Source: Pseudomonadota bacterium
Lineage (GTDB): Bacteria; Pseudomonadota; Gammaproteobacteria; UBA12402
NCBI GenBank assembly: GCA_039190005.1
Contig: JBCCYM010000003.1
Span: 7,715 to 71,714, forward strand
Direction: 5' to 3'
Length of the DNA stretch: 64,000 nucleotides
In this document: positions 37,394 to 64,000 of the stretch, piece after piece
How positions within the stretch are numbered: the stretch's first letter is position 1
How the letters are laid out: every line of letters starts with the position of its first letter
The notes under the pieces: model-generated
Told to the model about the DNA's origin: nothing
The model's input: only the letters and a program-made list of their open reading frames with translations
The model's database searches: none
Position numbers and translations under genes: made by a program

Positions 37394-37648
37394 GTGGATT
37401 CCCACACCTTGCCCGCCATTCCTGCACCCCTTCGACAAGCTCAGGGACCGCAGGCTCAGGAACCACGCTTCGTCATGCTCAGGATAAAATCCAGGAGAAA
37501 AATGTGTATGGGTGTGGTTTTAATGTAGCAAGACATATATACACAAACTACCATACTGCTCTCAACAATATCGAGCGTATTGTCGAAAGAAAAAATCTCT
37601 ATGCCTATAGTTTGTTCCCTGGATTCCCGCTTTCGCGGGAATGACGTA
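37394..37648. repeat. Composite roughly 255-bp element: degenerate family A left end, two family B units, internal sequence, family A right end
   Basis: GGATTCCCACAC...CCCCTTCGACAAGCTCAGGGACCGCAGGCTCAGGAACC ... AATCCAGGAGAAAAATGT ... TTCCCTGGATTCCCGCTTTCGCGGGAATGACG; fills the lapA-rpsA intergenic space. Confidence 0.55.
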
Positions 37649-37654
37649 GGGAGA

Positions 37655-39337
37655 TCAGTTCTGCTTTTCTTCTTCTTTAGCTTGTAACAGATCGCCAAGC
37701 GTTGCTTTACCAGCGGCACTCGCGTTTTTACTGATTTCTTTAAGGATTTTCGCGTCAGCCTGCTCAATCGCTTTAATTGAGAGCTGCACTTCTCGGTTAC
37801 GATAATCAAAACCAACAATCTTAGCTTCAATCTCATTACCCACAGCAAATTGCTTAGACAAATCACTTACTTTCTTAGATGATACATCTTCAGCACGCAT
37901 GGTCGCGTGAATATTATCCTCTAAATCGATTTTCAGCACTTTACTTTCAACCGCGGTAATCTTACCTTTGACCAAACTACCTTTATCATGCGCTTGCGTA
38001 TAATCGGTAAATGGGTCTTGATGCAACTGTTTAATACCCAAAGAAATGCGTTCTTGCTCCGCTTCTATCGCTAAAATGACAACCTCGATTTCTTCATTTT
38101 TCTTAAGCTGTCGCATTTTTTTATCCGCTTCAGCCAAATCCCAAGCGACATCAGAACGATGAATTAAACCATCAATACTGCCTTCCAAACCAATGAACAC
38201 ACCAAAATCAGTAATTGATTTGACCACACCATTAAGCTTCTCGCCTTTTTTATGACTGTCGGCAAATTGGGTCCACGGGTTCTCAGAACACTGTTTAATC
38301 CCCAGCGATATACGATGACGATCTTCATCAACTTCAAGCACCATGACTTCAAGTTCTTGATCCAATGACACCAGTTTACTCGGTTGGGCGTTTTTGTTCG
38401 ACCAATCCATTTCTGACATATGTACCAAACCTTCAATACCTTCTTTGAGCTCAATGAAACAACCATAGTCAGTCACATTGGTAACTCGCCCTTTGACGCG
38501 ACTACCTACCGGATAGCTCTCTTTCACACCTTTCCAAGGATCACCGGTAAGTTGTTTAATGCCAAGAGAAACACGATTTTTATCACGATCAATTTTTAAA
38601 ACGGATACTTTAATTTTTTGGTCTTTGTCAATGATATCACTAGGATGTTTAATTCGTCGCCAAGACATGTCCGTAATATGCAATAGACCATCAATACCGC
38701 CCAAATCAATGAAGGCGCCATAATCGGTAAGATTTTTGACAGTACCTTCAACTTCATCCCCTTCTTTGAGGTTTTCCAACAAGTTTGAACGCTCTTCAGA
38801 AATACTCGCTTCTAATACAGCGCGACGCGACAACACAATATTATTGCGTTTGCTATCCATTTTGATTATTTTTAATTCAAATTCTTTATGCTCAAATTCA
38901 CCGGGATCGCGTATTGGTCGCACATCCGCCAAAGAACCGGGTAGAAAACCTTTTAATCCCATGACTTCAACCATAAACCCACCTTTTACTCGAGTGGTGA
39001 CATAACCGTTCACATTGGTTTCAGTATCATAGAGCTCCTGTAGCTCACGCCACGATTCGGCGCGTTTGGCCTTATCACGCGATAAACGTGTTTCACCATA
39101 GCCATCTTCAATCATGTCTAAAGCGACATCAACCTCATCACCGACATTGACTTCTAATTCACCTTTAGCGTTCTCAAACTGTTCACGAGGAATAATACCC
39201 TCAGATTTTAAGCCGGCATTGACAATCACATAATCCTTATCAATTCGGATCACTGTCCCTCTTATAATTGTACCCGGTCTTAAGATTTCATTAGCAAAAC
39301 TTTGTTCTAAAAGTTCGGCAAAATTTTCATTCATCAT
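37655..39337 (-). CDS. rpsA: 30S ribosomal protein S1
   Basis: 560 aa; six S1 domains; N-terminus matches E. coli S1. Confidence 0.95.
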   Translation of the reverse strand: MMNENFAELLEQSFANEILRPGTIIRGTVIRIDKDYVIVNAGLKSEGIIPREQFENAKGELEVNVGDEVDVALDMIEDGYGETRLSRDKAKRAESWRELQELYDTETNVNGYVTTRVKGGFMVEVMGLKGFLPGSLADVRPIRDPGEFEHKEFELKIIKMDSKRNNIVLSRRAVLEASISEERSNLLENLKEGDEVEGTVKNLTDYGAFIDLGGIDGLLHITDMSWRRIKHPSDIIDKDQKIKVSVLKIDRDKNRVSLGIKQLTGDPWKGVKESYPVGSRVKGRVTNVTDYGCFIELKEGIEGLVHMSEMDWSNKNAQPSKLVSLDQELEVMVLEVDEDRHRISLGIKQCSENPWTQFADSHKKGEKLNGVVKSITDFGVFIGLEGSIDGLIHRSDVAWDLAEADKKMRQLKKNEEIEVVILAIEAEQERISLGIKQLHQDPFTDYTQAHDKGSLVKGKITAVESKVLKIDLEDNIHATMRAEDVSSKKVSDLSKQFAVGNEIEAKIVGFDYRNREVQLSIKAIEQADAKILKEISKNASAAGKATLGDLLQAKEEEKQN

Positions 39338-42917: not shown

Positions 42918-44588
42918 ATGAAATATCAATATTTTTTAGGCATTATTATGGCCACCCTAATTTTTCCACTTACGGTATACAGTACTGTAAATTCCCAATC
43001 AAGCCAAACGGTGATTCCTAGCCTGGATAAAACTATTATTGCTCCAGGTGGCACCACTACAATGACTTTCACAATCACAGGAAACAATAGTGGCGGCACT
43101 ATTAACATTTCAAGCGGCGTTAATTTTACACTGACTACTTCTACCACTAGCACTGTAAATGCAATACTCCAATCATCTGCTTGCACCACAGAAAACCATA
43201 CTGTGACTATACCAAGTGGTTTAGATAGTTGCGCTGTTGATGCGACAGTTTCTGATTCCACTTCCGATGGTACTTATAAATTTAGTTTTTCATCAAGTGA
43301 TTTTACCTTTCCATTAGTCGATAGTTTAACTTTTTCAGTAAGCGGATTGGGTTGGAAACAAATTGCGGTAGGCTATGATAGCACTTGTGGTATAGCAACA
43401 AACGGGAAAACCTATTGTTGGGGCAGTAATCTTCAGGGACAGTTAGGTATTAATAACAATGATAACACTTACCAAAGCACCATACCTGTTGCGGTGGATA
43501 CCGACGTTGAATTTGTACAAATTTCTTCCGGTTTTGGTATCAATTGCGGCGTGACCGCAGATTATGCCGCCTATTGTTGGGGAGCCAACAATTCTGGCGC
43601 GCTCGGAACAGGCAGCATAGGTGGCAATAGCGCTGTCCCCGCACAAGTAACCGGCGGACACAGCTTTAAGCAAATCTCTGTCGGTTATAAATCCACTTGT
43701 GCTGTAACAACGGATAACTATGCCTATTGTTGGGGCAGTAATCTTCAAGGACAGTTGGGTAATACGTCTTATGGTTCATCATCATTAGCAAGTACTGGCA
43801 CACCAGCACAAGTCCTTGATGAAGAAGGAAATCCAATCAGCCTTGCACAAATCTCTATGGGACAATTTTCTGCCTGTGGATTGAATGCTAGTGGTGAGGC
43901 ATATTGTTGGGGGGCTAATAACTTTGGTCAACTTGGTATTGGCAACATAAACGGTGATAGCAATGTAACCTGTACAGAAGAGAAGAATAATAATCAATCA
44001 GTAGAAGTAAGCTGTTTTCCCTATGCTAAGCCTGTTACTACCAATCAAGATGGTGTCGCACTCAACTTTAATAATATAAAAGTGGGGCATCAAACTGCCT
44101 GTGGTGTCGCAAAAACTGATGGTGAAACCTATTGCTGGGGTGATAATGAATATGGGCAACTAGGTAATGGAGAAAGCGGCGCAACTGCTTACAAAAAACA
44201 ACCAACTGCTGTTGAAGGCGGGCAAAAATTCTTAACTGTTTCTGCCGGACATTTAACAACTTGTGCAATTAATACGAATAAAAAAGCGTATTGTTGGGGT
44301 GCTAATGCTGCTGGACAGTTAGGCATTGACACTTACACTGATCCATCACAAGTTTCAACACCCACAGCGGTACAGCATGTTGAGTTATTTAATTCCATTT
44401 TTGAAGGCAGTTATTACACCACCTGTGGTGTTGCTAAAACAGGCCAAGGCTATTGTTGGGGCAGAAATAATGAAGGTCAATTAGGCATTGGTTCAAACGC
44501 CACCGGTGCAACCTGTATTATTGACACTCAGGGTACAACAGGCTTATGTGAAATGTTACCAACTTTAGTTGAAACACCAGCTTCTTAA
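42918..44588 (+). CDS. Secreted RCC1-repeat (beta-propeller) protein with Ser/Thr-rich N-terminal module
   Basis: Signal peptide; at least 7 repeats of the pattern YCWGxNxxGQLG; N-terminal module resembles those of the 1180-aa lipoprotein. Confidence 0.8.
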   Translation: MKYQYFLGIIMATLIFPLTVYSTVNSQSSQTVIPSLDKTIIAPGGTTTMTFTITGNNSGGTINISSGVNFTLTTSTTSTVNAILQSSACTTENHTVTIPSGLDSCAVDATVSDSTSDGTYKFSFSSSDFTFPLVDSLTFSVSGLGWKQIAVGYDSTCGIATNGKTYCWGSNLQGQLGINNNDNTYQSTIPVAVDTDVEFVQISSGFGINCGVTADYAAYCWGANNSGALGTGSIGGNSAVPAQVTGGHSFKQISVGYKSTCAVTTDNYAYCWGSNLQGQLGNTSYGSSSLASTGTPAQVLDEEGNPISLAQISMGQFSACGLNASGEAYCWGANNFGQLGIGNINGDSNVTCTEEKNNNQSVEVSCFPYAKPVTTNQDGVALNFNNIKVGHQTACGVAKTDGETYCWGDNEYGQLGNGESGATAYKKQPTAVEGGQKFLTVSAGHLTTCAINTNKKAYCWGANAAGQLGIDTYTDPSQVSTPTAVQHVELFNSIFEGSYYTTCGVAKTGQGYCWGRNNEGQLGIGSNATGATCIIDTQGTTGLCEMLPTLVETPAS

Positions 44589-51270: not shown

Positions 51271-51376
51271 TTAGCAAGCAATGTGGCATCACCATGCGTG
51301 CTACTGTGAACAGAATTATCACAACAAAAAATTGGCATTTTATCACCACCGTGTTATGATTGTACTTCGCAGCAAT

Positions 51377-51463
51377 GCCGGAGTGGCGGAATTGGTAGAC
51401 GCGCCGGATTCAAAATCCGGTGATGGCAACATCGTGTCGGTTCGAGTCCGACCTTCGGTACCA
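51377..51463 (+). tRNA. tRNA-Leu (CAA)
   Basis: 87 nt; anticodon stem-loop CCGGA-TTCAAAA-TCCGG; long variable arm; T-arm GTCGG/CCGAC; CCA end encoded. Confidence 0.9.
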
Positions 51464-51564
51464 TCAGGAGATGATCTTCAAAGCTTTGTGACAGCATTGG
51501 TTGATAGTATGAAGCCATTAATGGACAACAAACAATTATTGCATTACAAATTGCCAATCTTCAC

Positions 51565-51840
51565 ATGATGCAAATTCAATTAATTTCTGAATACGCATCT
51601 TCTACAGGATATCATCCTAAACCCAGTTCATTATCAGAAAAAATGAATAGTATTGCCAATTCAATTAGTAAGCTTGCAAATACAACTGCTAATTTAATGT
51701 CGCTCTACCACCGATTGCAATCAGACAGCACATTACCGACTGGCATTAACCATGTTAATGTTGCTTCAGGCGGTCAAGCGGTGGTGGGCAGTGTGATACA
51801 GACCGAAGTAAAAAATAAAAATAGCGGTAATACCCCATGA
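51565..51840 (+). CDS. Hypothetical protein (91 aa)
   Basis: ORF only; 4-nt overlap with the next ORF suggests a coupled pair. Confidence 0.3.
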   Translation: MMQIQLISEYASSTGYHPKPSSLSEKMNSIANSISKLANTTANLMSLYHRLQSDSTLPTGINHVNVASGGQAVVGSVIQTEVKNKNSGNTP

Positions 51841-52088
51841 AACGATGTAATGCTAAGACAAGAAAAGGTACACCTTGCCAACGCTATGCCCTTAAAAACG
51901 TCAAAAATGGACGTTGTCGGCTACATGGTATATCTACCGGAGCTAAAACAAAAGCCGGTAGAGAGCGTTTACGGGCTGCTCAGCTCAAACATGGGTATTA
52001 CAGCAAAGAATCTATATCACAGCGCAAAAAAATAAAAGAGATGCTTACTTTAGCAACAGAAACAATTCAAATGGCAGAGAATGCTTAA
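51837..52088 (+). CDS. Small basic Cys-containing protein (83 aa) with C-x8-C ... RCRLHG motif, zinc-ribbon-like
   Basis: MKRCNAKTRKGTPCQRYALKNVKNGRCRLHGISTGAKTKAGRERL; resembles a small-protein motif (RCRxHGGxSxG) I recall from other proteobacteria but cannot name. Confidence 0.4.
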   Translation: MKRCNAKTRKGTPCQRYALKNVKNGRCRLHGISTGAKTKAGRERLRAAQLKHGYYSKESISQRKKIKEMLTLATETIQMAENA

Positions 52089-52218
52089 TCACCCAGTTTC
52101 GATGCTGCAAATAACTAGCTATAAATTCTTGCAATTATTTTTTAATTGTTGATAATTGTATTGCTTTACGGACATTGGCATCATAATCAATATTATTCAA
52201 ATGATGGAGATATTAACA

Positions 52219-52758
52219 ATGGCAAAAACTGGTTATATAAAATATTTTATCAAATTCTTTTTTTATTTTTTAATATGTTTAGGATATTTTTTGAATTCAT
52301 TTATTTTTGCTCAGGCTCAAACTATACCAACGTTTGTTACTGGCAATAAATTTTTGGGCTGGTGTAGCGCTGTAAAAAAGATTGCTGATGGTTCAATATC
52401 TAACGCCAGCGTTTCTGATGATTATAATTCTTTTATTGCAGTTAGTTATGCTTTGGGCGTGCATGATGCATACATGGAAAATTTATCTTACTTAATGAAA
52501 AATAATTTCGCTGAATGTTATAACAAAAATTACTTAGGCTTTAAACCACAACAACTAGTATTATCAGTATGCAAATATTTAGACAATCATCCAGAAACTT
52601 TAAATTATAGTGCTGCATCTATTATTCAAGTTGTAATTACAAGTGAATATCCTATTCCTGAGCAGTGTTATAATAAGAAAGAAAAAATTGACTTATCAAA
52701 ATATAAAATAGATACAACTAATCAGAAAAATAAAACTTCAAACACTAACAAAAAATAG
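52219..52758 (+). CDS. Hypothetical secreted protein (about 180 aa, 4 Cys)
   Basis: Signal peptide MAKTGYIKYFIKFFFYFLICLGYFLNSFIFAQA|QT from an internal ATG; the ORF-track start at 52156 is probably too far upstream. Confidence 0.5.
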   Translation: MAKTGYIKYFIKFFFYFLICLGYFLNSFIFAQAQTIPTFVTGNKFLGWCSAVKKIADGSISNASVSDDYNSFIAVSYALGVHDAYMENLSYLMKNNFAECYNKNYLGFKPQQLVLSVCKYLDNHPETLNYSAASIIQVVITSEYPIPEQCYNKKEKIDLSKYKIDTTNQKNKTSNTNKK

Positions 52759-53458
52759 AGAGTATTTAATTTGAAAGATCTATTTTTAGGCATATTATAT
52801 TATTAATTTGTTTAGTAATTTTCTTATTGCACTCTTGTCATAACAATCCTGAGGATGCTCCTGAGTATAAACAAAATTACAGCACCGTGTACGATGATAG
52901 TGTAATTGATACATGTAATGTATGTAATAACAATGCGGTCTATGAAAGCCAAAAGGAACTGTGTCAGCAGATATGTCAGTAATTAAAAAACCTGGAATAA
53001 TTAATTGAAAAAATATTTGAGGTCAGAATAACGTGCCAACTGGATATTTCTTCATGAAATATCCAGTCACACGCCCTCATCCTCTCAGCCATTCATACTT
53101 GAAAACAGCCCTACCCATAAACCACTATTACTAGCAGCTTTGTTGCAACAAAATTGAGCCATCGATACTGACAGCTCGATTCCACACTCACACTATAATA
53201 TAGCGTGGCGATCCTCCATTTCCTCTTTGGTATAATCATAGTTTTTCTAATATGAATTATTGCTATTATTGTTTATTATTATTCACTAATGAGCTTGTAA
53301 TCTTAAATTGATTTTATAGTAATCATTATTTTCAAATAGTATTAGCGCAAAATTAACTTTAATCTTGGCATTATAAATTAGGACGTTGAAATCTATCTCA
53401 TATACTGCTACCTTGAACTTGCTAACAACATAGGATTTCATCATGGAAAATTATCGTC

Positions 53459-54715
53459 ATGTTAATTAAAACATTTACTTACTGCATTATTGGGACAGTA
53501 TTGGAATGGTACGACTTCGCGCTTTTTGGTGTCCTTGCACCTATCCTATCTACCATTTTTTTTCCGCATAAGGATAAAACAACCAGTTTACTAATAGCTT
53601 TTTCTATCTTTGCTACTGGATTTCTAACGCGACCACTTGGCAGCATTTTCTTTGGACATATTGGCGACCGCTATGGTCGAAAAAAAGCGATTATTCTATC
53701 AATGTTGCTAATGTGTTTTTCAACTGTTGGGATTGGATTATTACCCATTCATCACGTCAATACACATCTTATTGTGATGGTTCTGGTTATCTTAAGACTT
53801 TTCCAAGGCTTTTCAGTAGGTGGTGAGACAGGCGGCATTATTACCTTTGTCAGTGAATTATTTTCCAGGAAAGAAAAATTGTTTTTTTACCAAAGCTTTA
53901 TTTATGCTGGCATGAACGCTGGCATTTTATTGGGAACGGCTATTGGCAGTCTTACATTTTCTGTTTATCACCATAATATTCAAACCAATGTTTGGCGATT
54001 ACCTTTTCTTATCAGTTTATTATTAGGGATTGTTGGACTTTATTTACGTTTAAAAGCGATTGAGTCGCCGATATTTAGCAGCATCTTACAACAAAATAAA
54101 GTGGTAAAAATACCTTTTGTTTATATGTTGAGAAAATGTTATAGACAGGTAATTTTTTCATTATTACTGATGTTCTCTGGCGCAATTGTTTTCTACTATA
54201 CACTCTTCTATTACCCAGCATATATCAATCATTTCCTAAAATTTGGTCGATATTTGCATGTTGAGATTATAGGATTAGTCTGTTTACTTTTTCTTGCGCC
54301 ATTTTTTAGTTTCTTTTACACAAAAAACAATGTGAGAAAAATTACTATCGCAGGATTTCTGAGTTTTCTTATTTTCCCAATTCCAACTTTAATTTTGGTT
54401 GCATTATATCCACATCAACTCGCATTGGTAATACAGTTGTTCTATATTGTTTGCTATAGCACTTTTCAATCGCTTATTCCAACACTGCCATGCCTGTCTT
54501 TTCCCCATGAGGTCAGATACACTGGTCTATCATTTTGCTTTAATGTGGCAGTATTATTTGGCGGAACATTCCCAATGGCTGCTATCTTACTGACGAAAAT
54601 AACAGGTCTCTCTTTTGCCGGCGGCCTATATATGGCACTAGCAGCCTTGCCAGCAATTATTGCGCTGCTGTATCTCTGGAAAACAATGGCAATTACAGCA
54701 CGACCAAATCACTAG
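53459..54715 (+). CDS. MFS transporter, metabolite:H+ symporter (MHS, ProP/KgtP-like) family
   Basis: N-terminal LEWYDFALFG and GHIGDRYGRKK motifs typical of MHS; 12 TM. Confidence 0.8.
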   Translation: MLIKTFTYCIIGTVLEWYDFALFGVLAPILSTIFFPHKDKTTSLLIAFSIFATGFLTRPLGSIFFGHIGDRYGRKKAIILSMLLMCFSTVGIGLLPIHHVNTHLIVMVLVILRLFQGFSVGGETGGIITFVSELFSRKEKLFFYQSFIYAGMNAGILLGTAIGSLTFSVYHHNIQTNVWRLPFLISLLLGIVGLYLRLKAIESPIFSSILQQNKVVKIPFVYMLRKCYRQVIFSLLLMFSGAIVFYYTLFYYPAYINHFLKFGRYLHVEIIGLVCLLFLAPFFSFFYTKNNVRKITIAGFLSFLIFPIPTLILVALYPHQLALVIQLFYIVCYSTFQSLIPTLPCLSFPHEVRYTGLSFCFNVAVLFGGTFPMAAILLTKITGLSFAGGLYMALAALPAIIALLYLWKTMAITARPNH

Positions 54716-55511
54716 AAAGGTAAAAATCGACTAATTCTGAACGCGCACTCATACCAAGTCTTTCTTTCAGATTATTCTGATAGGTTTCAACGGCTCGATA
54801 GGAACCCAACCCAAGCAGAATAGCCGTTTCTTTATTACTCCTGCCTTGCGCTAAACATCTCAAGCATTCAAATTCTCTTGCTGTAATCCCGATACGCTTT
54901 CCCTTATACACCACATTGTAATGCTTAGGTTGCAGACTTTTTTCTAATTTTTCTGGATTAAATGGCATCTCGCACCTCTTAGTATTATTATCATTGTCTA
55001 CATTGTTACCAAGCATAATTTTACTATGAAGCGCATCAGCAACCAGTCGCTTACTTTTTCCTAAAAAGTCATATTTTACTAAGGTCAAAAATCGCCAATT
55101 CTTAAAATAAAAATCCATCAAATTGCTACCATCGGAAGCAAAACAAAAAAGTTCATAGTTTTCATCACTCTGATCGACTATCACCACTGGCGTACCTAAG
55201 CCATATTCTTTCGCAATTGGACAAATGTTTTTATTATCTTCTCTTGGAAAATAAAATATCTGATTATGAATGGTATGTGTTGATTTCTTCGCTTCAATAC
55301 TATCAATCTGCTTATAACAAATAGCTTTTTTCATATTAATGGACATACCCGTCCATTTAGCATCACTTGATAAGAAAATCGATGAACCATCTTTCCAATA
55401 CTTAGAATAACAAAAAAATCGAACATCCGTGTTTTCAAATAATGGTCGGCATATTTGCCGCACATCATCTTGATAGGTGAATAAGTGACTTTTAGATAAA
55501 TCTTGCCGCAT
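54693..55511 (-). CDS. LuxR-family transcriptional regulator with uncharacterised roughly 200-aa N-terminal domain
   Basis: C-terminal LuxR-type HTH (ITAREFECLRCLAQGRSNKETAILLGLGSYRAVETYQNNLKERLG); N-terminal domain not confidently an autoinducer-binding domain. Confidence 0.65.
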   Translation of the reverse strand: MRQDLSKSHLFTYQDDVRQICRPLFENTDVRFFCYSKYWKDGSSIFLSSDAKWTGMSINMKKAICYKQIDSIEAKKSTHTIHNQIFYFPREDNKNICPIAKEYGLGTPVVIVDQSDENYELFCFASDGSNLMDFYFKNWRFLTLVKYDFLGKSKRLVADALHSKIMLGNNVDNDNNTKRCEMPFNPEKLEKSLQPKHYNVVYKGKRIGITAREFECLRCLAQGRSNKETAILLGLGSYRAVETYQNNLKERLGMSARSELVDFYLSSDLVVL

Positions 55512-55740
55512 TTTCCTTGCTCCTTTTTCTTATTTTTCGCAATGCTATTAGTGTACTCTTATAAAAAAAATAAAGCAAATGGGCTAAACCTAACAAATTT
55601 TCTATGGGACACTCACGGGACACTTGCAGATAAAAAACAGCGATTATCTACAATTGGTGACCACAATGAAAATCATATAATATTATGATTTTATTACAAT
55701 TATTGATTGTCAATTATTGCCGCTATTAGTATAATTTCAG

Positions 55741-55796
55741 ATTCAAAATCCGGTGATGGCAACATCGTGTCGGTTCGAGTCCGACCTTCGGTACCA
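55741..55796 (+). repeat. Duplicate of the 3' 56 nt of tRNA-Leu (putative attR)
   Basis: Identical to 51408-51463. Confidence 0.8.
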
Positions 55797-55806
55797 AAAT
55801 TATAGA

Positions 55807-55903
55807 ATAATAATTAATCAACTTGAAAGCAGAACATGTATGTTGGTAGGCACGATTGGGATTGAACCAACGACCCCCACCATGTCAAGGTGATGCTCTA
55901 CCA
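55807..55903. repeat. 97-bp direct repeat copy 1, containing the 3' 60 nt of tRNA-Val on the minus strand plus 37 bp of flank
   Basis: 96/97 identity with 56591-56687; tRNA-Val fragment at 55844-55903. Confidence 0.8.
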
Positions 55904-55972
55904 TTTTTAATCACACTTAAGCAATAATTAAAAATTGACTCAAAATGTGTATTGTGTGTATAATTTATTGTC

Positions 55973-56161
55973 ATGAAAAGTACGGAAATTATTAAAATCC
56001 TTAGAATGGATGGTTGGACAGAATGTCACAAAAAGGGGAGTCATTGTCAATTTAAACACCCGACAAAATCGGGCAAAGTGACTGTGCCTCACCCCAAAAA
56101 GGATTTACCTATAAAAACCGTTAATAGCATATTTAAACAGGCAAATATTAGCCGGAGGTAA
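55973..56161 (+). CDS. hicA: Type II toxin HicA (YcfA-like mRNA interferase)
   Basis: 62 aa; GWxxxxxKGSHxxFKHP...GKVTVPHP pattern typical of HicA. Confidence 0.85.
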   Translation: MKSTEIIKILRMDGWTECHKKGSHCQFKHPTKSGKVTVPHPKKDLPIKTVNSIFKQANISRR

Positions 56162-56165
56162 GATC

Positions 56166-56594
56166 ATGCACTACCCAGTTGTGATTCATAAAGATAAAGA
56201 AAGTGATTTTGGCGTCATCGTTCCAGATCTTGCGGGCTGTTTTTCTGCTGGTGACACCTATGAAGAAGCGCTTACCAACGCGGTAGAGGCAATTGAGTGC
56301 CACCTGGAAGGTTTATTGCGCGATAATCAAACCATCCCTGTCGCCAAAGAAATTGATAACTACATTCATAAACGTGAATACGCAGGAGGTATATGGGCTT
56401 TAGTTGAAATCAACATTAGCCAATTATCCGGTAAAGCTAAGCGAATTAATATTACTTTACCCGAACGACTATTGCGCCTGATTGATCTTCATGCAAAAAA
56501 TCTTGCTCATAAGAACCGGTCCGCATTTATTGCTGATGCGACATTAGCTTATATGTCTCAAGATAACTACCAACACAACACCAGAGAGAGATAA
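56166..56594 (+). CDS. hicB: Type II antitoxin HicB with C-terminal RHH DNA-binding domain
   Basis: 142 aa; N-terminal HicB fold motif (HYPVVIHKDKESDFGVIVPDLAGCFSAGDTYEEAL); C-terminal RINITLPERLLRLID ribbon-helix-helix. Confidence 0.85.
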   Translation: MHYPVVIHKDKESDFGVIVPDLAGCFSAGDTYEEALTNAVEAIECHLEGLLRDNQTIPVAKEIDNYIHKREYAGGIWALVEINISQLSGKAKRINITLPERLLRLIDLHAKNLAHKNRSAFIADATLAYMSQDNYQHNTRER

Positions 56595-56687
56595 TAATTA
56601 GTCAACTTGAAAGCAGAACATGTATGTTGGTAGGCACGATTGGGATTGAACCAACGACCCCCACCATGTCAAGGTGATGCTCTACCA
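56591..56687. repeat. 97-bp direct repeat copy 2, overlapping the 3' 60 nt of the intact tRNA-Val
   Basis: See copy 1. Confidence 0.8.
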
Positions 56688-56702
56688 CTGAGCTACGTGC
56701 CT
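56628..56702 (-). tRNA. tRNA-Val (GAC)
   Basis: Minus-strand cloverleaf: acceptor AGGCACG/CGTGCCT, D-arm GCTC/GAGC, anticodon loop TTGACAT, T-arm GTTGG/CCAAT, CCA encoded. Confidence 0.85.
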
Positions 56703-58813: not shown

Positions 58814-58903
58814 GATAGTTTATAGTCATAGTTTTATCTTGATTGTTAATTATAAACTGTTATGATAAGGATATAAACATGTATTTAAGCTGTCATTCCA
58901 GCT

Positions 58904-59040
58904 TCTCCTCCGTCATTCCCGCGCAGGCGGGAATCCAGGAGAAAAATGTTTATGCCTGTGGTTTGTTCGCTGGATTCCCGCCTGCGCGGGAATGACGAGG
59001 AAAAGATGCGGGAATGACGGGGAAGAGATGCGGGAATGAC
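58904..59040. repeat. Family A full 85-bp element followed by three tandem roughly 22-bp partial copies of its end (GATGCGGGAATGACGRGGWA)
   Basis: Seen directly; lies in the divergent uvrB/aminotransferase promoter region, ending 33 bp before the aminotransferase ATG. Confidence 0.65.
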
Positions 59041-59072
59041 GAGGTAATATCAAATTATTAAGGTTACACACC

Positions 59073-60254
59073 ATGCAAGAATTTCTTTCCCAACGCATTC
59101 AAAAAATACAACCATCAATCACCCTGGGCTTAAACGCGAAAGCAAAAGAATTACGCGCTGCCGGTCAGGATGTGATCAGTCTAGCCAGTGGCGAACCAGA
59201 CTTCGCGACACCGGCAAACATTCAGGAAGCTGCTATTAAAGCCATCCGCGACGGCGAGCATAAATATACCGCGGTTGAAGGTTCACCGGCACTTAGACAA
59301 GCTATTGTTGCTAAATTAAAACGCGATAACAACCTTGACTACACGATCAATCAGGTTGAAGCCAGCCCTGGGGCAAAACAAGCAATCTACAACTTGCTGG
59401 TAACACTGCTTAATGATGGCGATGAGGTCATTATTCCCGCGCCCTACTGGGTTTCTTACTTAGATATGGTCCTGGTGACCGGTGGAAAACCCGTTATTGT
59501 CTCCAGTGATATTAACCAACATTACAAAATTACTGCCGCGCAATTAGAACAAGCCATTACGCCAAAAACAAAATTATTGATGCTCAATAGTCCCAGCAAC
59601 CCTTCGGGCATGGTTTATAGTCATGAGGAACTAAAACAACTGGCTGATGTGTTGACGCGTCATCCACATGTACTGATTATGTCTGATGACATCTATGAAC
59701 ATATTTTATGGTCAGCGCAGGCATTTAAAAATATTGTCAATGTGTGTTCAGAACTTTATGATCGCACCATTATCATTAATGGTGTGTCAAAATCTTATGC
59801 CATGACCGGTTGGCGTCTAGGTTTTGCCGCCGGTCCGGAAAAAATTATTGCCGCGATGAAAAAAATACAAGGTCAAAGCACTTCTTGTCCATGCAGTATT
59901 ACTCAAGCTGCCGCTGTCGAAGCTTGGAATGGCGATCAAAGCTGTTTGCAGTCCTTCCGCGCCGCGTATAAGCAACGTCATGATTTGGCGTATGAACGCT
60001 TTAAAAAAATGCCAGGGGTAAAAATTGCGCCGGCAGAAGGCGCGTTTTATTTATTCCCCGATGTGAGTGAAGCTTACCAGGCTTTAGGCATGGCAAACGA
60101 TGCCGAGTTTGCTGAATATTTACTAGAGCAAGCAAAAATTGCTTTAGTGCCTGGCACCGCTTTTGGCGCCCCAGGTTCGATACGGATGTCCTGCGCTTTA
60201 GATCAAGCGAGTTTAGAAAAAGCGTTAGATCGTTTTGAAAGCGCGTTGAAATAG
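59073..60254 (+). CDS. PLP-dependent aspartate/aromatic aminotransferase (class I, subgroup Ib-like)
   Basis: 393 aa; PLP-Lys motif SKSYAMTGWRLG; N-terminal fold-type I pattern. Confidence 0.85.
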   Translation: MQEFLSQRIQKIQPSITLGLNAKAKELRAAGQDVISLASGEPDFATPANIQEAAIKAIRDGEHKYTAVEGSPALRQAIVAKLKRDNNLDYTINQVEASPGAKQAIYNLLVTLLNDGDEVIIPAPYWVSYLDMVLVTGGKPVIVSSDINQHYKITAAQLEQAITPKTKLLMLNSPSNPSGMVYSHEELKQLADVLTRHPHVLIMSDDIYEHILWSAQAFKNIVNVCSELYDRTIIINGVSKSYAMTGWRLGFAAGPEKIIAAMKKIQGQSTSCPCSITQAAAVEAWNGDQSCLQSFRAAYKQRHDLAYERFKKMPGVKIAPAEGAFYLFPDVSEAYQALGMANDAEFAEYLLEQAKIALVPGTAFGAPGSIRMSCALDQASLEKALDRFESALK

Positions 60255-61474: not shown

Positions 61475-61502
61475 TAATGTGACTATTGGAATCTAACAAA
61501 TC

Positions 61503-61560
61503 CGTCATTCCCGCGAAGGTGGTCCCTGAGCTTGTCGAAGGGTCGAAGGGCGGGAATCCA
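61503..61560. repeat. Family A palindrome with family B unit inserted precisely in its 8-bp spacer
   Basis: GTCATTCCCGCGAAGG | TGGTCCCTGAGCTTGTCGAAGGGTCGAAGG | GCGGGAATCCAG. Confidence 0.6.
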
Positions 61561-61705
61561 GTTAGTTCAAGCCCAATTATTTTAAATAATGGACACTGCT
61601 TGAAATAGTAAAATAATTCAGATTGCAACAGTCTCTGAATGGAAAGATCATCTACGTTTCGCGATGACAAAAGAAGATTATGATTCGTTTACTTCATGAG
61701 GAAAA

Positions 61706-62032
61706 CTAATAAATATGTACTGCCAGCCACACACATGGTTCATTATGGCTTGTATACTTAACTCTGTGTTTTCTATGGCTTTCAATAAAAATGTAGTCCC
61801 CTGGCTGTAAATGAGCTTCAGTGTTATCTTCAAACTGTAATATCGCTTGTCCTTTTAACAATAAAACCCATTCATCTTGCATTTGATCATACCACTTGCC
61901 TTTGGGTGTTGTGTGTCCTGTGGAAATAATACGTTCCAATTTAACATTGTCATGTTCAATTAAGGTTTGAAAAAGCTCTTCAGGGATGTTGTTATTAGGT
62001 AAACCATCAAAGATATTATTAAGTTTGCGCAT
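61706..62032 (-). CDS. Cupin-domain protein
   Basis: 108 aa; two-motif cupin pattern (GxxxxxH...Wxxxxxg and PxGxxHxxxN-like). Confidence 0.55.
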   Translation of the reverse strand: MRKLNNIFDGLPNNNIPEELFQTLIEHDNVKLERIISTGHTTPKGKWYDQMQDEWVLLLKGQAILQFEDNTEAHLQPGDYIFIESHRKHRVKYTSHNEPCVWLAVHIY

Positions 62033-62067
62033 ATTTATTTACTAATAATCCAGCTAATTTTTTGCAA

Positions 62068-62505
62068 TCAACTAAAAAACCGTTTACAAAACGTTAAGTA
62101 GCGATTGAGTAGAAAATTCCAGACAAAAACAATCAAAGTGGTTAATACCCGACTGATAAATAATTTAAAATGGAAAAACTCTACCATAATAGCCATGAGC
62201 AGAAGGCTTAGTAGGAAAGCACTGATTACCACAACTATTGAAATCAGGAACTGCGTTTTTACCCGCTTGGAATGACAACGAAAAGCAAAAAGCTTATTAC
62301 AGCTAAAACTTACAATACTGCCCACTCCCATCGATATCAATAATGCCCACGGATAAGAAAAATCAAGGTAATCGGTAAAAAAATGAAACACACCCCAATC
62401 AACAAGCGTGGCAACAATACTGCCTAACAAATAACGGGAAACAATGGTGTCGTAAACGCGGCGATTTAAAAATATCAATTTCATCCGCCTAAGTCCGTCA
62501 ATCAC
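62068..62505 (-). CDS. GtrA-family membrane protein
   Basis: 145 aa, 4 TM; RYLLGSIVATLVDWGVFHF typical GtrA N-terminus. Confidence 0.6.
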   Translation of the reverse strand: MIDGLRRMKLIFLNRRVYDTIVSRYLLGSIVATLVDWGVFHFFTDYLDFSYPWALLISMGVGSIVSFSCNKLFAFRCHSKRVKTQFLISIVVVISAFLLSLLLMAIMVEFFHFKLFISRVLTTLIVFVWNFLLNRYLTFCKRFFS

Positions 62506-63121
62506 TCGATTGATCAGCGGACGCGAGACGCATTGCCAGTATAAAGCTCTGTAAAATATTTATACCAGACAGCACTACCAGTATGATTAATAACCACCCA
62601 GCTAAAACAGAACTCCAATGCGCTGACACAATAATCAGCAAAATTAAAAAATATATTTCGCCGCGATTAAGAATACGCCAAATTTTCTTTTCTTCAGGAT
62701 CAATCACTGCTTGGCGATGATTGGCGTAAGCGACAATAAACGAGGGCATCATGACACCAAAACCAGCCATATATATCCATAAATTAATCGACAGTACAGG
62801 AAATTGCATGGGCAACCAGAAAAAACTGCCCACATAAATAAAGTCAACAAAACGATCTAAGATACCATCAAGAAAAGCACCTCTGTGGGTCATCTTACCA
62901 CGAACACGCGCGCAACTACCATCAATAATATCCAACACACCTGAGAGGAAGAAGAAAAAGCAACCCCATAATAATTTTCCATTGGCAATGAATATAAAAC
63001 CAATCACGGCAACTGGAATCGTCATCCAAGAATAAAAATCAGGGGAAAAAGGCAGTTTGGCAAAAATTTTACCGACAAATAATGAAAAATTCCGCCATGT
63101 TTTAGATTTTTCTTTGATCAT
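62498..63121 (-). CDS. CDP-alcohol phosphatidyltransferase
   Basis: DGxxARxxxxxxxxGxxxDxxxD motif (DIIDGSCARVRGKMTHRGAFLDGILDRFVD); overlaps the GtrA gene start. Confidence 0.75.
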   Translation of the reverse strand: MIKEKSKTWRNFSLFVGKIFAKLPFSPDFYSWMTIPVAVIGFIFIANGKLLWGCFFFFLSGVLDIIDGSCARVRGKMTHRGAFLDGILDRFVDFIYVGSFFWLPMQFPVLSINLWIYMAGFGVMMPSFIVAYANHRQAVIDPEEKKIWRILNRGEIYFLILLIIVSAHWSSVLAGWLLIILVVLSGINILQSFILAMRLASADQSSD

Positions 63122-63308
63122 TTACGCTTAAGTTTTAATATACTGTAATTGGCGCCTATCATTACATGATTGCTTATTGTTGTCAATGAAACTGAAAATC
63201 TGGAGACGCGTGCCTGTGGCATGTATAGCAGCAACTTGAAATTTGTAATTATCCTTTATATGATCATAATTAATTATGCTTGTGAGCAATTAAACAAAGG
63301 GGAAACGC

Positions 63309-64000
63309 GTGTTGAAAAAAAGTGCAGCTTATTTAGCTTCAATATTCATAACAATATACCTAATTCTAGGATTAACAGCCTGTTCAGGAAATAGTAGTGA
63401 TACAAATACAATTAGCAATCAAGTCACTGGTTTTAGTTTAGATACAAATGATACCAGTTGGTTAAGTAATAATATCTATGCCCAAACCTCCAGTGGCACA
63501 ACAACTGTAACAGTTGATTTTACCAAAACTAACAACAGCACACAATTAGGTGCAAGTGCCATAGATGGTGGAAATATCACTGTTTCAATTACCGGTGTCA
63601 ATACCTGTTTAAATGATCCAAATACAACCCCATCAACAACAGTGAGTTCTTCAGCAAACAGTGCCACCGTCAATTTGAACTGGGCTGATCCTATTCCTGA
63701 AAACTGTAGTAGCGCAACCATCAATGTGTCTCAGCATGGCGTTGCGATTGGCAGTCGACTCATTCGTTTTTCCCGTACTGATTATACCGCTGAATTACTG
63801 AATACCCAACCTTATCCCGATGCTTCTGGCATTAAGTTAACCAATGGCTCTGGTGTTATTGTTGATAACCCCATCACAGTAACATTACCAGCTTATTTAA
63901 CTGTCGTTTCAAATGCCTCAACCCAACCCGATTACATTCAGAATTTATATCATTACATTCATAACAATGATACGAATGGGACAATATGCGCGGTCACCAC
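63309..64000 (+). CDS. Ser/Thr-rich lipoprotein, partial (runs off the window end)
   Basis: GTG start after AAGGGGA RBS; lipobox LTACSG; composition resembles the 1180-aa lipoprotein; absent from the ORF track because no stop occurs in the window. Confidence 0.5.
   Translation, partial: MLKKSAAYLASIFITIYLILGLTACSGNSSDTNTISNQVTGFSLDTNDTSWLSNNIYAQTSSGTTTVTVDFTKTNNSTQLGASAIDGGNITVSITGVNTCLNDPNTTPSTTVSSSANSATVNLNWADPIPENCSSATINVSQHGVAIGSRLIRFSRTDYTAELLNTQPYPDASGIKLTNGSGVIVDNPITVTLPAYLTVVSNASTQPDYIQNLYHYIHNNDTNGTICAVT

Follow-up and report, generated by a model that had tools for sequence, protein, structure and literature searches.

Phage satellites and islands of the P4 type carry int, alpA, a primase gene and cargo, and P4 itself integrates at a tRNA-Leu gene (leuX). 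Cis-mobilizable elements (CIMEs), a second described class, are integrative and conjugative elements (ICEs), integrative and mobilizable elements (IMEs) or prophages that have decayed and retain attL and attR (PMC5704250). We analysed 64,000 nt of a gammaproteobacterial genome (GenBank assembly GCA_039190005.1, contig JBCCYM010000003.1, positions 7,715 to 71,714; hereafter the window), in which the interval between the genes ptp and uvrB holds two small inserted units: islet 1, of 4.3 kb, at tRNA-Leu(CAA), and islet 2, a hicAB operon at tRNA-Val(GAC). An earlier annotation made from the letters and open reading frames (ORFs) of the window, which we call the sequence-only reading, had described islet 1 as an integrase-less unit, possibly mobilized in trans. 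We put at roughly 70% the probability that the interval consists of two back-to-back remnants of tRNA-targeting integrative elements, lodged in convergent tRNA genes. Islet 1 is most likely a CIME or island remnant, a known kind of element, and its mobility is putative.

Islet 1 is like described CIMEs in that it is bounded by direct repeats carrying the 3′ end of the target gene, lacks integrase, excisionase and transfer genes, derives from a larger element (one of its module genes is truncated and frameshifted) and lies in a hotspot beside a second decayed element. Described CIMEs belong mostly to ICE families of Firmicutes, whereas islet 1, in a gammaproteobacterium that resembles Legionellales, apparently descends from an element of the phage, satellite or island type. 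Islet 1 and its boundaries comprise the following features.

51377 to 51463 (+): intact tRNA-Leu(CAA), the target of islet 1 (ARAGORN; Rfam tRNA, 57.4 bits)
51407 to 51463 (+): left 57-nt direct repeat, attL-type core, tRNA-Leu positions 31-87 (repeat finder; Logan contig L229)
51464 to 51840 (+): pseudogene X′, remnant of a gene found just ahead of HGGxSTG genes in related elements (tblastn, alignment A1)
51837 to 52088 (+): gene for an HGGxSTG-domain (CCCH zinc-ribbon) protein of 83 aa (NF041373, 47.3 bits against a cut-off of 29)
52156 to 52758 (+): gene for a Rap1a-like secreted protein with four cysteines (PF18602, 39.8 bits against a cut-off of 27.7, aa 62-166)
52759 to 53458 (no strand): AT-rich stretch of 700 nt with neither a long ORF nor a recognizable gene remnant (six-frame scan)
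53459 to 54715 (+): gene for a major facilitator superfamily (MFS) transporter resembling metabolite:H+ symporters (MHS) and ProP (PF07690, 92 bits; PF00083, 75 bits)
54693 to 55511 (-): gene for a LuxR-family regulator with a C-terminal GerE helix-turn-helix (HTH) at aa 210-263 (PF00196, 37 bits)
55696 to 55735 (+): right-end control region, a tandem wCAATTATTGm pair (55696-55705 and 55711-55720) with an outward promoter (11/12 consensus matches)
55740 to 55796 (+): right 57-nt repeat, attR-type core, displaced tRNA-Leu 3′ fragment, followed by what is probably native flank (repeat finder)

The direct repeat is exact (51407-51463 and 55740-55796, 57/57 identical) and encloses the 4,276 bp of islet 1 (51464-55739); chance recurrence of an exact 57-mer within 64 kb is negligible. 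It comprises the last 2 nt of the 5′ arm of the anticodon stem, the seven-base anticodon loop and everything through CCA, directly after which the copies diverge (left TCAGGAG..., right AAATTATAG...). The sequence-only reading had given a perfect 56-bp duplication of the tRNA-Leu 3′ end as the signature of integration into a tRNA gene. Its exactness stands, its length becomes 57 nt with copies starting at 51407 and 55740, and a repeat that runs from anticodon loop to CCA bears out the attL/attR-like geometry. The junction between repeat and islet was seen independently in one of two Logan contigs from run SRR22824305 that are 100% identical to the window (L081, 42767-51405; L229, 51434-52832). 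L229 begins with the last 30 nt of the repeat, as k=31 predicts, and L081 ends in the 5′ half of the tRNA gene. The end of L081 at 51405 was considered as evidence of a variant junction and dropped, because it lies 2 nt before the repeat and not 30 nt into it; a further sequence resembling tRNA-Leu in the sample may be the reason. A putative sigma70-like promoter lies 5′ of tRNA-Leu(CAA), at 51332-51360. By reading, the acceptor stem of this tRNA contains two G-U pairs (1-72 and 5-68 in standard tRNA numbering), which are not attributable to an element-supplied 3′ half since both 3′ copies are identical.

The AT-rich interior noticed in the sequence-only reading is compositionally foreign when set against the core genome. 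Islet 1 has a GC content of 33.8%, compared with 41.1% for the window and a core-gene mean of 42.8% (sd 2.5%), and all five of its ORFs fall below the core, by 1.1 to 6.4 sd in GC and by 2.0 to 5.1 sd in GC at third codon positions (GC3). The earlier statement that no integrase or excisionase gene lies between the repeats also holds: profile searches (Pfam, NCBIfam, PHROGs) of the enclosed ORFs found no integration, excision or transfer genes, and no recombinase was detected in the six-frame translation of the 700-nt gap at 52759-53458 or among ORFs of at least 200 aa across the 64-kb window. An integrase relic within that gap was accordingly rejected. At the DNA level islet 1 had zero matches to plasmids, a 54-nt segment of tRNA-Leu had zero matches to viral contigs, and matches of the whole locus to phages were confined to tRNA-like and hicA sequence.

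The loss of a recombination module is suggested by the gene next to the left repeat. X′ abuts this repeat directly and is 5′-truncated at the attL junction. It is homologous to aa 62-164 of a 173-aa protein on contig L084 (tblastn, E=7e-16), and X sequences from contigs L083, L084 and L085 are homologous to one another and to the 91-aa ORF that is left over in the window (51565-51840; alignment A1). In-frame stops occur at 51502-51507 and a frameshift at 51518-51519, upstream of which homology runs on in another frame to the end of the tRNA. When the shift was corrected by joining 51464-51517 (frame 2) to 51520-51837 (frame 1), the alignments crossed it and scores rose by 7-12 bits for 3/3 homologues (63.9 to 73.2, 42.7 to 49.3 and 25.8 to 37.4). 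The corrected X′ begins at residue 62 of 173, 23 of 110 and 105 of 215 of these homologues, so that the N-terminus and start codon are absent. An identical X′ sequence is present in L229, a contig of a separate assembly. Downstream, the HGGxSTG gene is translationally coupled to X′ through an ATGA overlap. Its product, a basic protein, belongs to the HGGxSTG family (NF041373), with C4, C14, C27 and H30 invariant in alignment A3, has its closest relatives at 56-69% identity and weakly matches PHROG 9231, a small terminase. The near-invariant second Gly of the motif is missing from the window protein, which fits relaxed constraint.

The HGGxSTG domain is present on 57 IMG/VR viral contigs, and the gene pair was found in relatives in the following orders.

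L084: AlpA, 602-aa protein, X (173 aa), HGGxSTG
L083: DUF3631 primase C-terminus, X (110 aa), HGGxSTG, secreted protein, ankyrin protein
L085: DUF5906 primase ... X (215 aa), HGGxSTG, Terminase_2
L086-L089: HTH/excisionase-like genes ... 216-aa protein, HGGxSTG, 490-aa tyrosine integrase (element end), host genes

X and HGGxSTG thus form a conserved module of integrative and phage-like elements. The damage to X′, together with the neighbours of HGGxSTG in these relatives, indicates that islet 1 derives from an autonomous element by decay. As the attL-side gene is a 5′-truncated and frameshifted relic of this module, the absence of an integrase is best explained by deletion, and not by a unit that is integrase-less by design, a revision of the sequence-only reading. 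On L083 (1100-3902) the HGGxSTG gene is followed by genes for a secreted protein (236 aa) and an ankyrin-repeat protein (639 aa), which suggests from gene content that this element family may ferry eukaryote-like effector cargo.

P4-type islands share with islet 1 the target tRNA-Leu(CAA) and the co-orientation of the surviving genes with the tRNA, and relatives of its X-HGGxSTG pair stand after genes of the AlpA or primase-like type on L084 and L083 and before a small terminase gene on L085. Unlike these islands, islet 1 lacks int, alpA and primase altogether, its repeat is 57 nt from anticodon loop to CCA and not a short 3′-terminal core, and the integrase of L086-L089 lies downstream of HGGxSTG. 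Of a tRNA-adjacent tyrosine integrase, an AlpA-type regulator and a primase or helicase, none was found in the islet or elsewhere in the window; only genes that neighbour them in relatives survive. With the defining genes absent, islet 1 as it stands falls outside the P4/satellite class.

The second repeat, which the sequence-only reading missed, is 97 nt long with one mismatch (55807-55903 and 56591-56687), and hicA and hicB are the only genes between its copies. Each copy comprises the 3′-terminal 60 nt of tRNA-Val(GAC) (positions 16-75) together with the 37 nt that follow the gene.

55807 to 55903 (-): distal 97-nt copy, tRNA-Val flank (55807-55843) and tRNA-Val positions 16-75 (55844-55903) (repeat finder)
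55935 to 56594 (+): hicAB operon, hicA at 55973-56161 and hicB at 56166-56594 (PF07927, 74.2 bits; PF15919, 155.8 bits)
56591 to 56702 (-): proximal 97-nt copy (56591-56687), overlapping intact tRNA-Val(GAC) (56628-56702) (ARAGORN, Rfam)

The full order is therefore ptp, tRNA-Leu, islet 1, displaced tRNA-Leu fragment (Leu′), 10 nt, 37 nt of flank with the tRNA-Val fragment (Val′), hicAB, 37 nt of flank with tRNA-Val, and uvrB. tRNA-Val(GAC) lies just downstream of uvrB, an adjacency that is kept in many gammaproteobacterial loci. The empty site expected by the sequence-only reading, in which ptp-tRNA-Leu would abut tRNA-Val-uvrB, did not take account of the hicAB islet in between; with both islets removed, the two tRNA genes would be convergent and 47 nt apart. 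HicA_toxin and HicB antitoxin domains encoded in one operon, with a 4-nt gap between the genes and a near-consensus predicted promoter (TTGACT-18-TATAAT, 55935-55964), identify a HicAB type II toxin-antitoxin system, and the stop codon of hicB falls within the 97-nt repeat. The operon is 68% (aa) and about 70% (nt) identical to hicAB of conjugative plasmids of Legionella pneumophila and L. anisa. With the HicAB of such plasmids (pLPL, L. pneumophila Lens) it shares both Pfam domains, the gene order and a promoter of its own, whereas the window copy is chromosomal, stands alone and is framed exactly by the duplicated tRNA-Val 3′ end and flank. Identity of attachment sites that extends into the flank has a precedent in phage HP1. 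Islet 2 is most likely an integration scar cut down to a toxin-antitoxin module, its mechanism being the least secure part of our account. The distal copy also gives a sub-threshold partial tRNA match in Rfam (55853-55915). Rfam HPnc0260 hits at 55731-55882 and 56492-56666 (+) were discarded, being sub-threshold (52 and 43 bits against 59) and coincident with the antisense of tRNA-Val; they are most likely due to similarity to the tRNA complement.

The geometry and gene content fit a sequence of events in which an element with a tyrosine integrase would have entered tRNA-Leu(CAA) by recombination at or close to its anticodon loop, supplying a new 3′ part of the tRNA whilst the displaced 3′ fragment became the right repeat. 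A later deletion that ran into the middle of X would then have removed the tRNA-proximal integrase, probably along with AlpA- and primase-like genes, a content proposed from the gene orders on L084 and L083. There is some doubt about the order of genes in the parent, because the integrase of L086-L089 is on the other side of HGGxSTG. What survived would be the X′-HGGxSTG relic and low-GC cargo, namely the Rap1a-like protein, taken to be periplasmic, and the MFS transporter with its regulator, a putative ligand sensor of the LuxR-solo type. Without a compatible integrase from another source, this remnant would be stranded. At islet 2 (55904-56590) the element may have taken the same general route at tRNA-Val(GAC), reduced to a plasmid-type hicAB; an addiction module plausibly resists loss, and such modules are plausible last survivors of eroding islands.

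The cargo of islet 1, called unusual in the sequence-only reading, is mostly recognizable: the 83-aa protein belongs to HGGxSTG (NF041373), the four-cysteine protein is Rap1a-like (PF18602) and the N-terminus of the LuxR protein is predicted to have a receptor-type fold. The Rap1a-like gene has the lowest GC content (27%) among islet 1 genes, and its likely start is M22 at 52219, which is followed by a signal-peptide-like N-terminus. The protein scores above the gathering threshold of PF18602, which was also matched on the Logan gene call, and thereby matches the family of Rap1a-type immunity proteins; no cognate amidase effector or secretion-system genes were recognized beside it or among the scanned window ORFs. 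The transporter matches the general MFS_1 and Sugar_tr families and scores 265 bits against TIGR00883 (MHS), below the cut-off of 443. Its earlier assignment to the MHS family can thus be kept as a resemblance to metabolite:H+ symporters, and membership by the family cut-off cannot. The luxR-type gene converges on the transporter gene with a 23-nt overlap. Contig L170 encodes homologues of both proteins (LuxR, 40% identity; MFS, 47%) that are equally convergent and overlapping, a shared arrangement which indicates that the pair is a conserved module, as the sequence-only reading had proposed for transporter and regulator.

A word-index protein search with the LuxR-type protein returned only itself, and a full HMMER search, for which its N-terminal 205 residues served as query, returned 174 representatives of the same length class (roughly 260-290 aa). 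No Pfam domain besides the C-terminal HTH was found in this protein or its relatives (40 aligned members), and sequence-profile matches in the Protein Data Bank (PDB) covered the HTH only. An AlphaFold2 (AF2) model built on the family alignment (pLDDT 90.1, pTM 0.86) matched RhlR, QscR, SdiA, LasR and TraR over its full length in Foldseek (E about 3e-7), and the isolated ligand-binding domains of LasR and YenR with TM scores of 0.53-0.57. Given these matches to quorum-sensing receptors, the N-terminal ~200 aa are predicted to be a divergent receptor-type ligand-binding domain, so the domain described earlier as unrecognized has the modelled fold of an autoinducer-receptor ligand-binding domain. 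That fold, in combination with the GerE HTH, places the protein with LuxR receptors of the acyl-homoserine lactone (AHL) type in architecture. The window protein is like RhlR, QscR, SdiA, LasR and TraR in its two domains, C-terminal GerE HTH and predicted N-terminal fold (Foldseek probability 1.0), and unlike them in its sequence, only about 10-16% identical, and in its conserved pairing with an MFS transporter. It further differs from AHL receptors in that the autoinducer-binding domain (PF03472) is matched in 0/40 family members, being unrecognizable by sequence in the window protein and its 39 relatives. The near-invariant residues of the family (P23, F33, L47, F124, F145 and F149) show no obvious match to the canonical AHL-contact set, a comparison made without structural mapping of residues.

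The sequence-only reading had reported a 9-mer at both ends of islet 1 as possible arm-type recombinase sites. This 9-mer, CAATTATTG, occurs at 51533, 54654, 55697 and 55711, all four within islet 1; the right pair is as described (55697 and 55711), whereas the left copy lies at 51533 and not at about 51521, and the copy at 54654 is additional. Its four occurrences in the window compare with 2.15 expected (15/100 shuffles reach four), its expectation in islet 1 alone is 0.19 for a pattern picked post hoc, and a 9-mer common to both arms turns up in 55% of shuffled pairs. An arm-type role for the copies at the two ends was rejected on these weak statistics and because the left copy lies inside the X′ coding sequence, which would be kilobases from att in an intact element. 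The right pair is overlapped by an outward sigma70-like promoter (TTGTCA-17-TATAAT, 55707-55735 (+), 11/12) that ends 4 nt short of the right repeat. Transcription from it is predicted to proceed towards hicAB by way of Leu′, the spacer and, in antisense, Val′. In a circularized islet 1, transcription would, as a speculation, pass over the joined core and enter the left end; the promoter resembles outward ones such as Pcirc of ICEclc, from which the integrase gene is expressed only when the element is excised.

Relatives of the window sequence are distant. A scan of contigs carrying UvrB gave relatives of at most 73% identity among the matches listed, none with tRNA-Leu beside tRNA-Val. RlmN retrieved the same organism (L081, 100%) and otherwise relatives of at most 76% identity, Legionella being at about 63%; in L082, the RlmN relative that was inspected, a polysaccharide-synthesis gene and not tRNA-Leu lies beside ptp, so that synteny differs. 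The exact ptp sequence is not on record, and a metagenome scan with ptp reached at most 38% identity. Eukaryote-like RCC1 repeats encoded in the window, ankyrin cargo in relatives of the element and the hicAB resembling that of Legionella plasmids suggest that the host is a Legionellales-like bacterium.

Several observations weigh against two decayed elements. The proposed deletion would have stopped no more than about 20 nt from the repeat, closer than would readily be expected by chance. The cargo has a GC content of 33% against 38.6% for the X′-HGGxSTG relic, so islet 1 may be a mosaic of more than one event. The repeat of islet 2 reaches 37 nt past the tRNA and back to the D-loop, and hicAB fills the gap exactly, an arrangement neater than random decay would leave. 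Neither an empty-site allele nor an intact parent element was found at tRNA-Leu in the searched collections, which hold no close relative. Both repeat pairs are still perfect or nearly so (57/57 and 96/97), which leaves immobility unproven and favours an alternative that we regard as unlikely, namely that islet 1, and perhaps the hicAB islet too, can still be mobilized in cis or in trans by an integrase that recognizes the intact 57-nt cores, encoded at another place in the genome or brought in by a related element. Such mobility is compatible with an origin by decay, CIMEs mobilized by accretion with an incoming ICE are a documented class, and a tandem 10-mer pair and a strong predicted outward promoter stand just inside the right repeat. 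However, no integrase was found in the window ORFs or the islet profile scans, the left end, which would be expected to carry arm sites and int, is deleted to about 20 nt from the core, and the left 9-mer copy lies within a pseudogene. Circular-junction or empty-site sequence was not recovered either, the Logan contigs showing only breaks near or at the repeat. It is distinctly improbable that both units are living integrase-less att cassettes, one of 784 bp (hicAB, its promoter and one 97-nt repeat) and one of 4.3 kb (LuxR/MFS), moved either through a recombinase whose gene lies elsewhere or by homologous recombination between the long repeats of tRNA and flank. In that case transcription from 55707-55735 would cross the joined core only in circles, and convergent tRNA pairs would be docking platforms for minimal hitch-hiking cassettes in Legionellales-like bacteria.

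The repeats could also have arisen if tRNA 3′ halves were duplicated locally, recombined unequally or underwent gene conversion around DNA that is native or was otherwise acquired, for example by homologous recombination after transformation. The 97-nt repeat lends itself to this explanation, as it takes in 37 nt of flank outside the tRNA and reaches back to the D-loop, neither of which a minimal att core needs, and hicAB fits precisely between its copies. We nevertheless think it very unlikely for the locus, because the tRNA-Leu identity begins at the anticodon loop and stops precisely at CCA (a span reportedly characteristic of integrases with their crossover at the anticodon loop), the interior of islet 1 is compositionally foreign and relatives of its genes adjoin integrase, primase and terminase genes. 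Least probable among the explanations considered is an assembly artefact, in which the real chromosome would be empty and the 4.3-kb unit, from a separate circle or another strain, threaded into it via the 57-nt repeat. The window does come from a contig of 74,139 nt in a metagenome-assembled genome (MAG), the k=31 contigs L081 (ending at 51405) and L229 (starting in the last 30 nt) break near or at the repeat, and at k=31 an integrated state is indistinguishable from an empty site plus a circle. Against this, a 57-nt repeat is below ordinary read size and would normally be resolved, the contig runs consistently through four repeat copies, the one-base difference in the 97-nt pair is expected of two real copies, and the 4.3-kb unit has no replication gene with which to persist as a replicon.

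Elsewhere in the window, palindromic elements of ~98 nt (CGTCATTCCCGCGCAGGCGGGAATCCAGG ... CCTGGATTCCCGCCTGCGCGGGAATGACG), similar to miniature inverted-repeat transposable elements (MITEs) or repetitive extragenic palindromes (REPs), occur at 9702-9799 and 58911-59008 (92% alike) and in a weaker form at 37560-37657; they give rise to spurious 'PAQAGIQ' ORFs near 58843-59098. A second short interspersed family consists of CTTCGACAGGCTCAGGAACC-type repeats with a 23-nt period, dispersed and in tandem, intergenic and on both strands (593-645, 7055-7214, 12488-12584, 21200-21298, 21849-21886, 23297-23334, 37428-37497 and 61518-61551). A eukaryote-like RCC1-repeat protein of 556 aa is encoded at 42918-44588 (+) (PF25390, 261 bits; low GC3, 0.30), and internal 78-nt DNA repeats in its gene mirror the protein repeats. 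The 1,180-aa ORF at 17331-20873 (-) matches no Pfam domain and, among the large ORFs, is the lowest in GC3 (0.26); it may be a horizontally acquired or effector-like gene. Another stretch of low GC content (33-38%), at 61500-63400, codes for a cupin protein, a CDP-alcohol phosphatidyltransferase and a small membrane protein, and neither a tRNA gene nor a repeat was noticed on its flanks.

On the reading that we favour, the locus is a small, clean case of the decay of tRNA-integrated elements, in which the recombination module is gone and the att scars, an addiction module and sensor/transporter cargo have been kept. This is an ordinary kind of genomic decay, which leaves the current understanding of mobile elements unchanged, and it comes from a poorly sampled, Legionellales-like lineage. 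The locus indicates that paired convergent tRNA genes can each bear a scar. Its cargo also brings to light a LuxR family of roughly 270 aa with a predicted divergent receptor-type ligand-binding domain and a conserved MFS neighbour, which together may form a sensing and uptake module.

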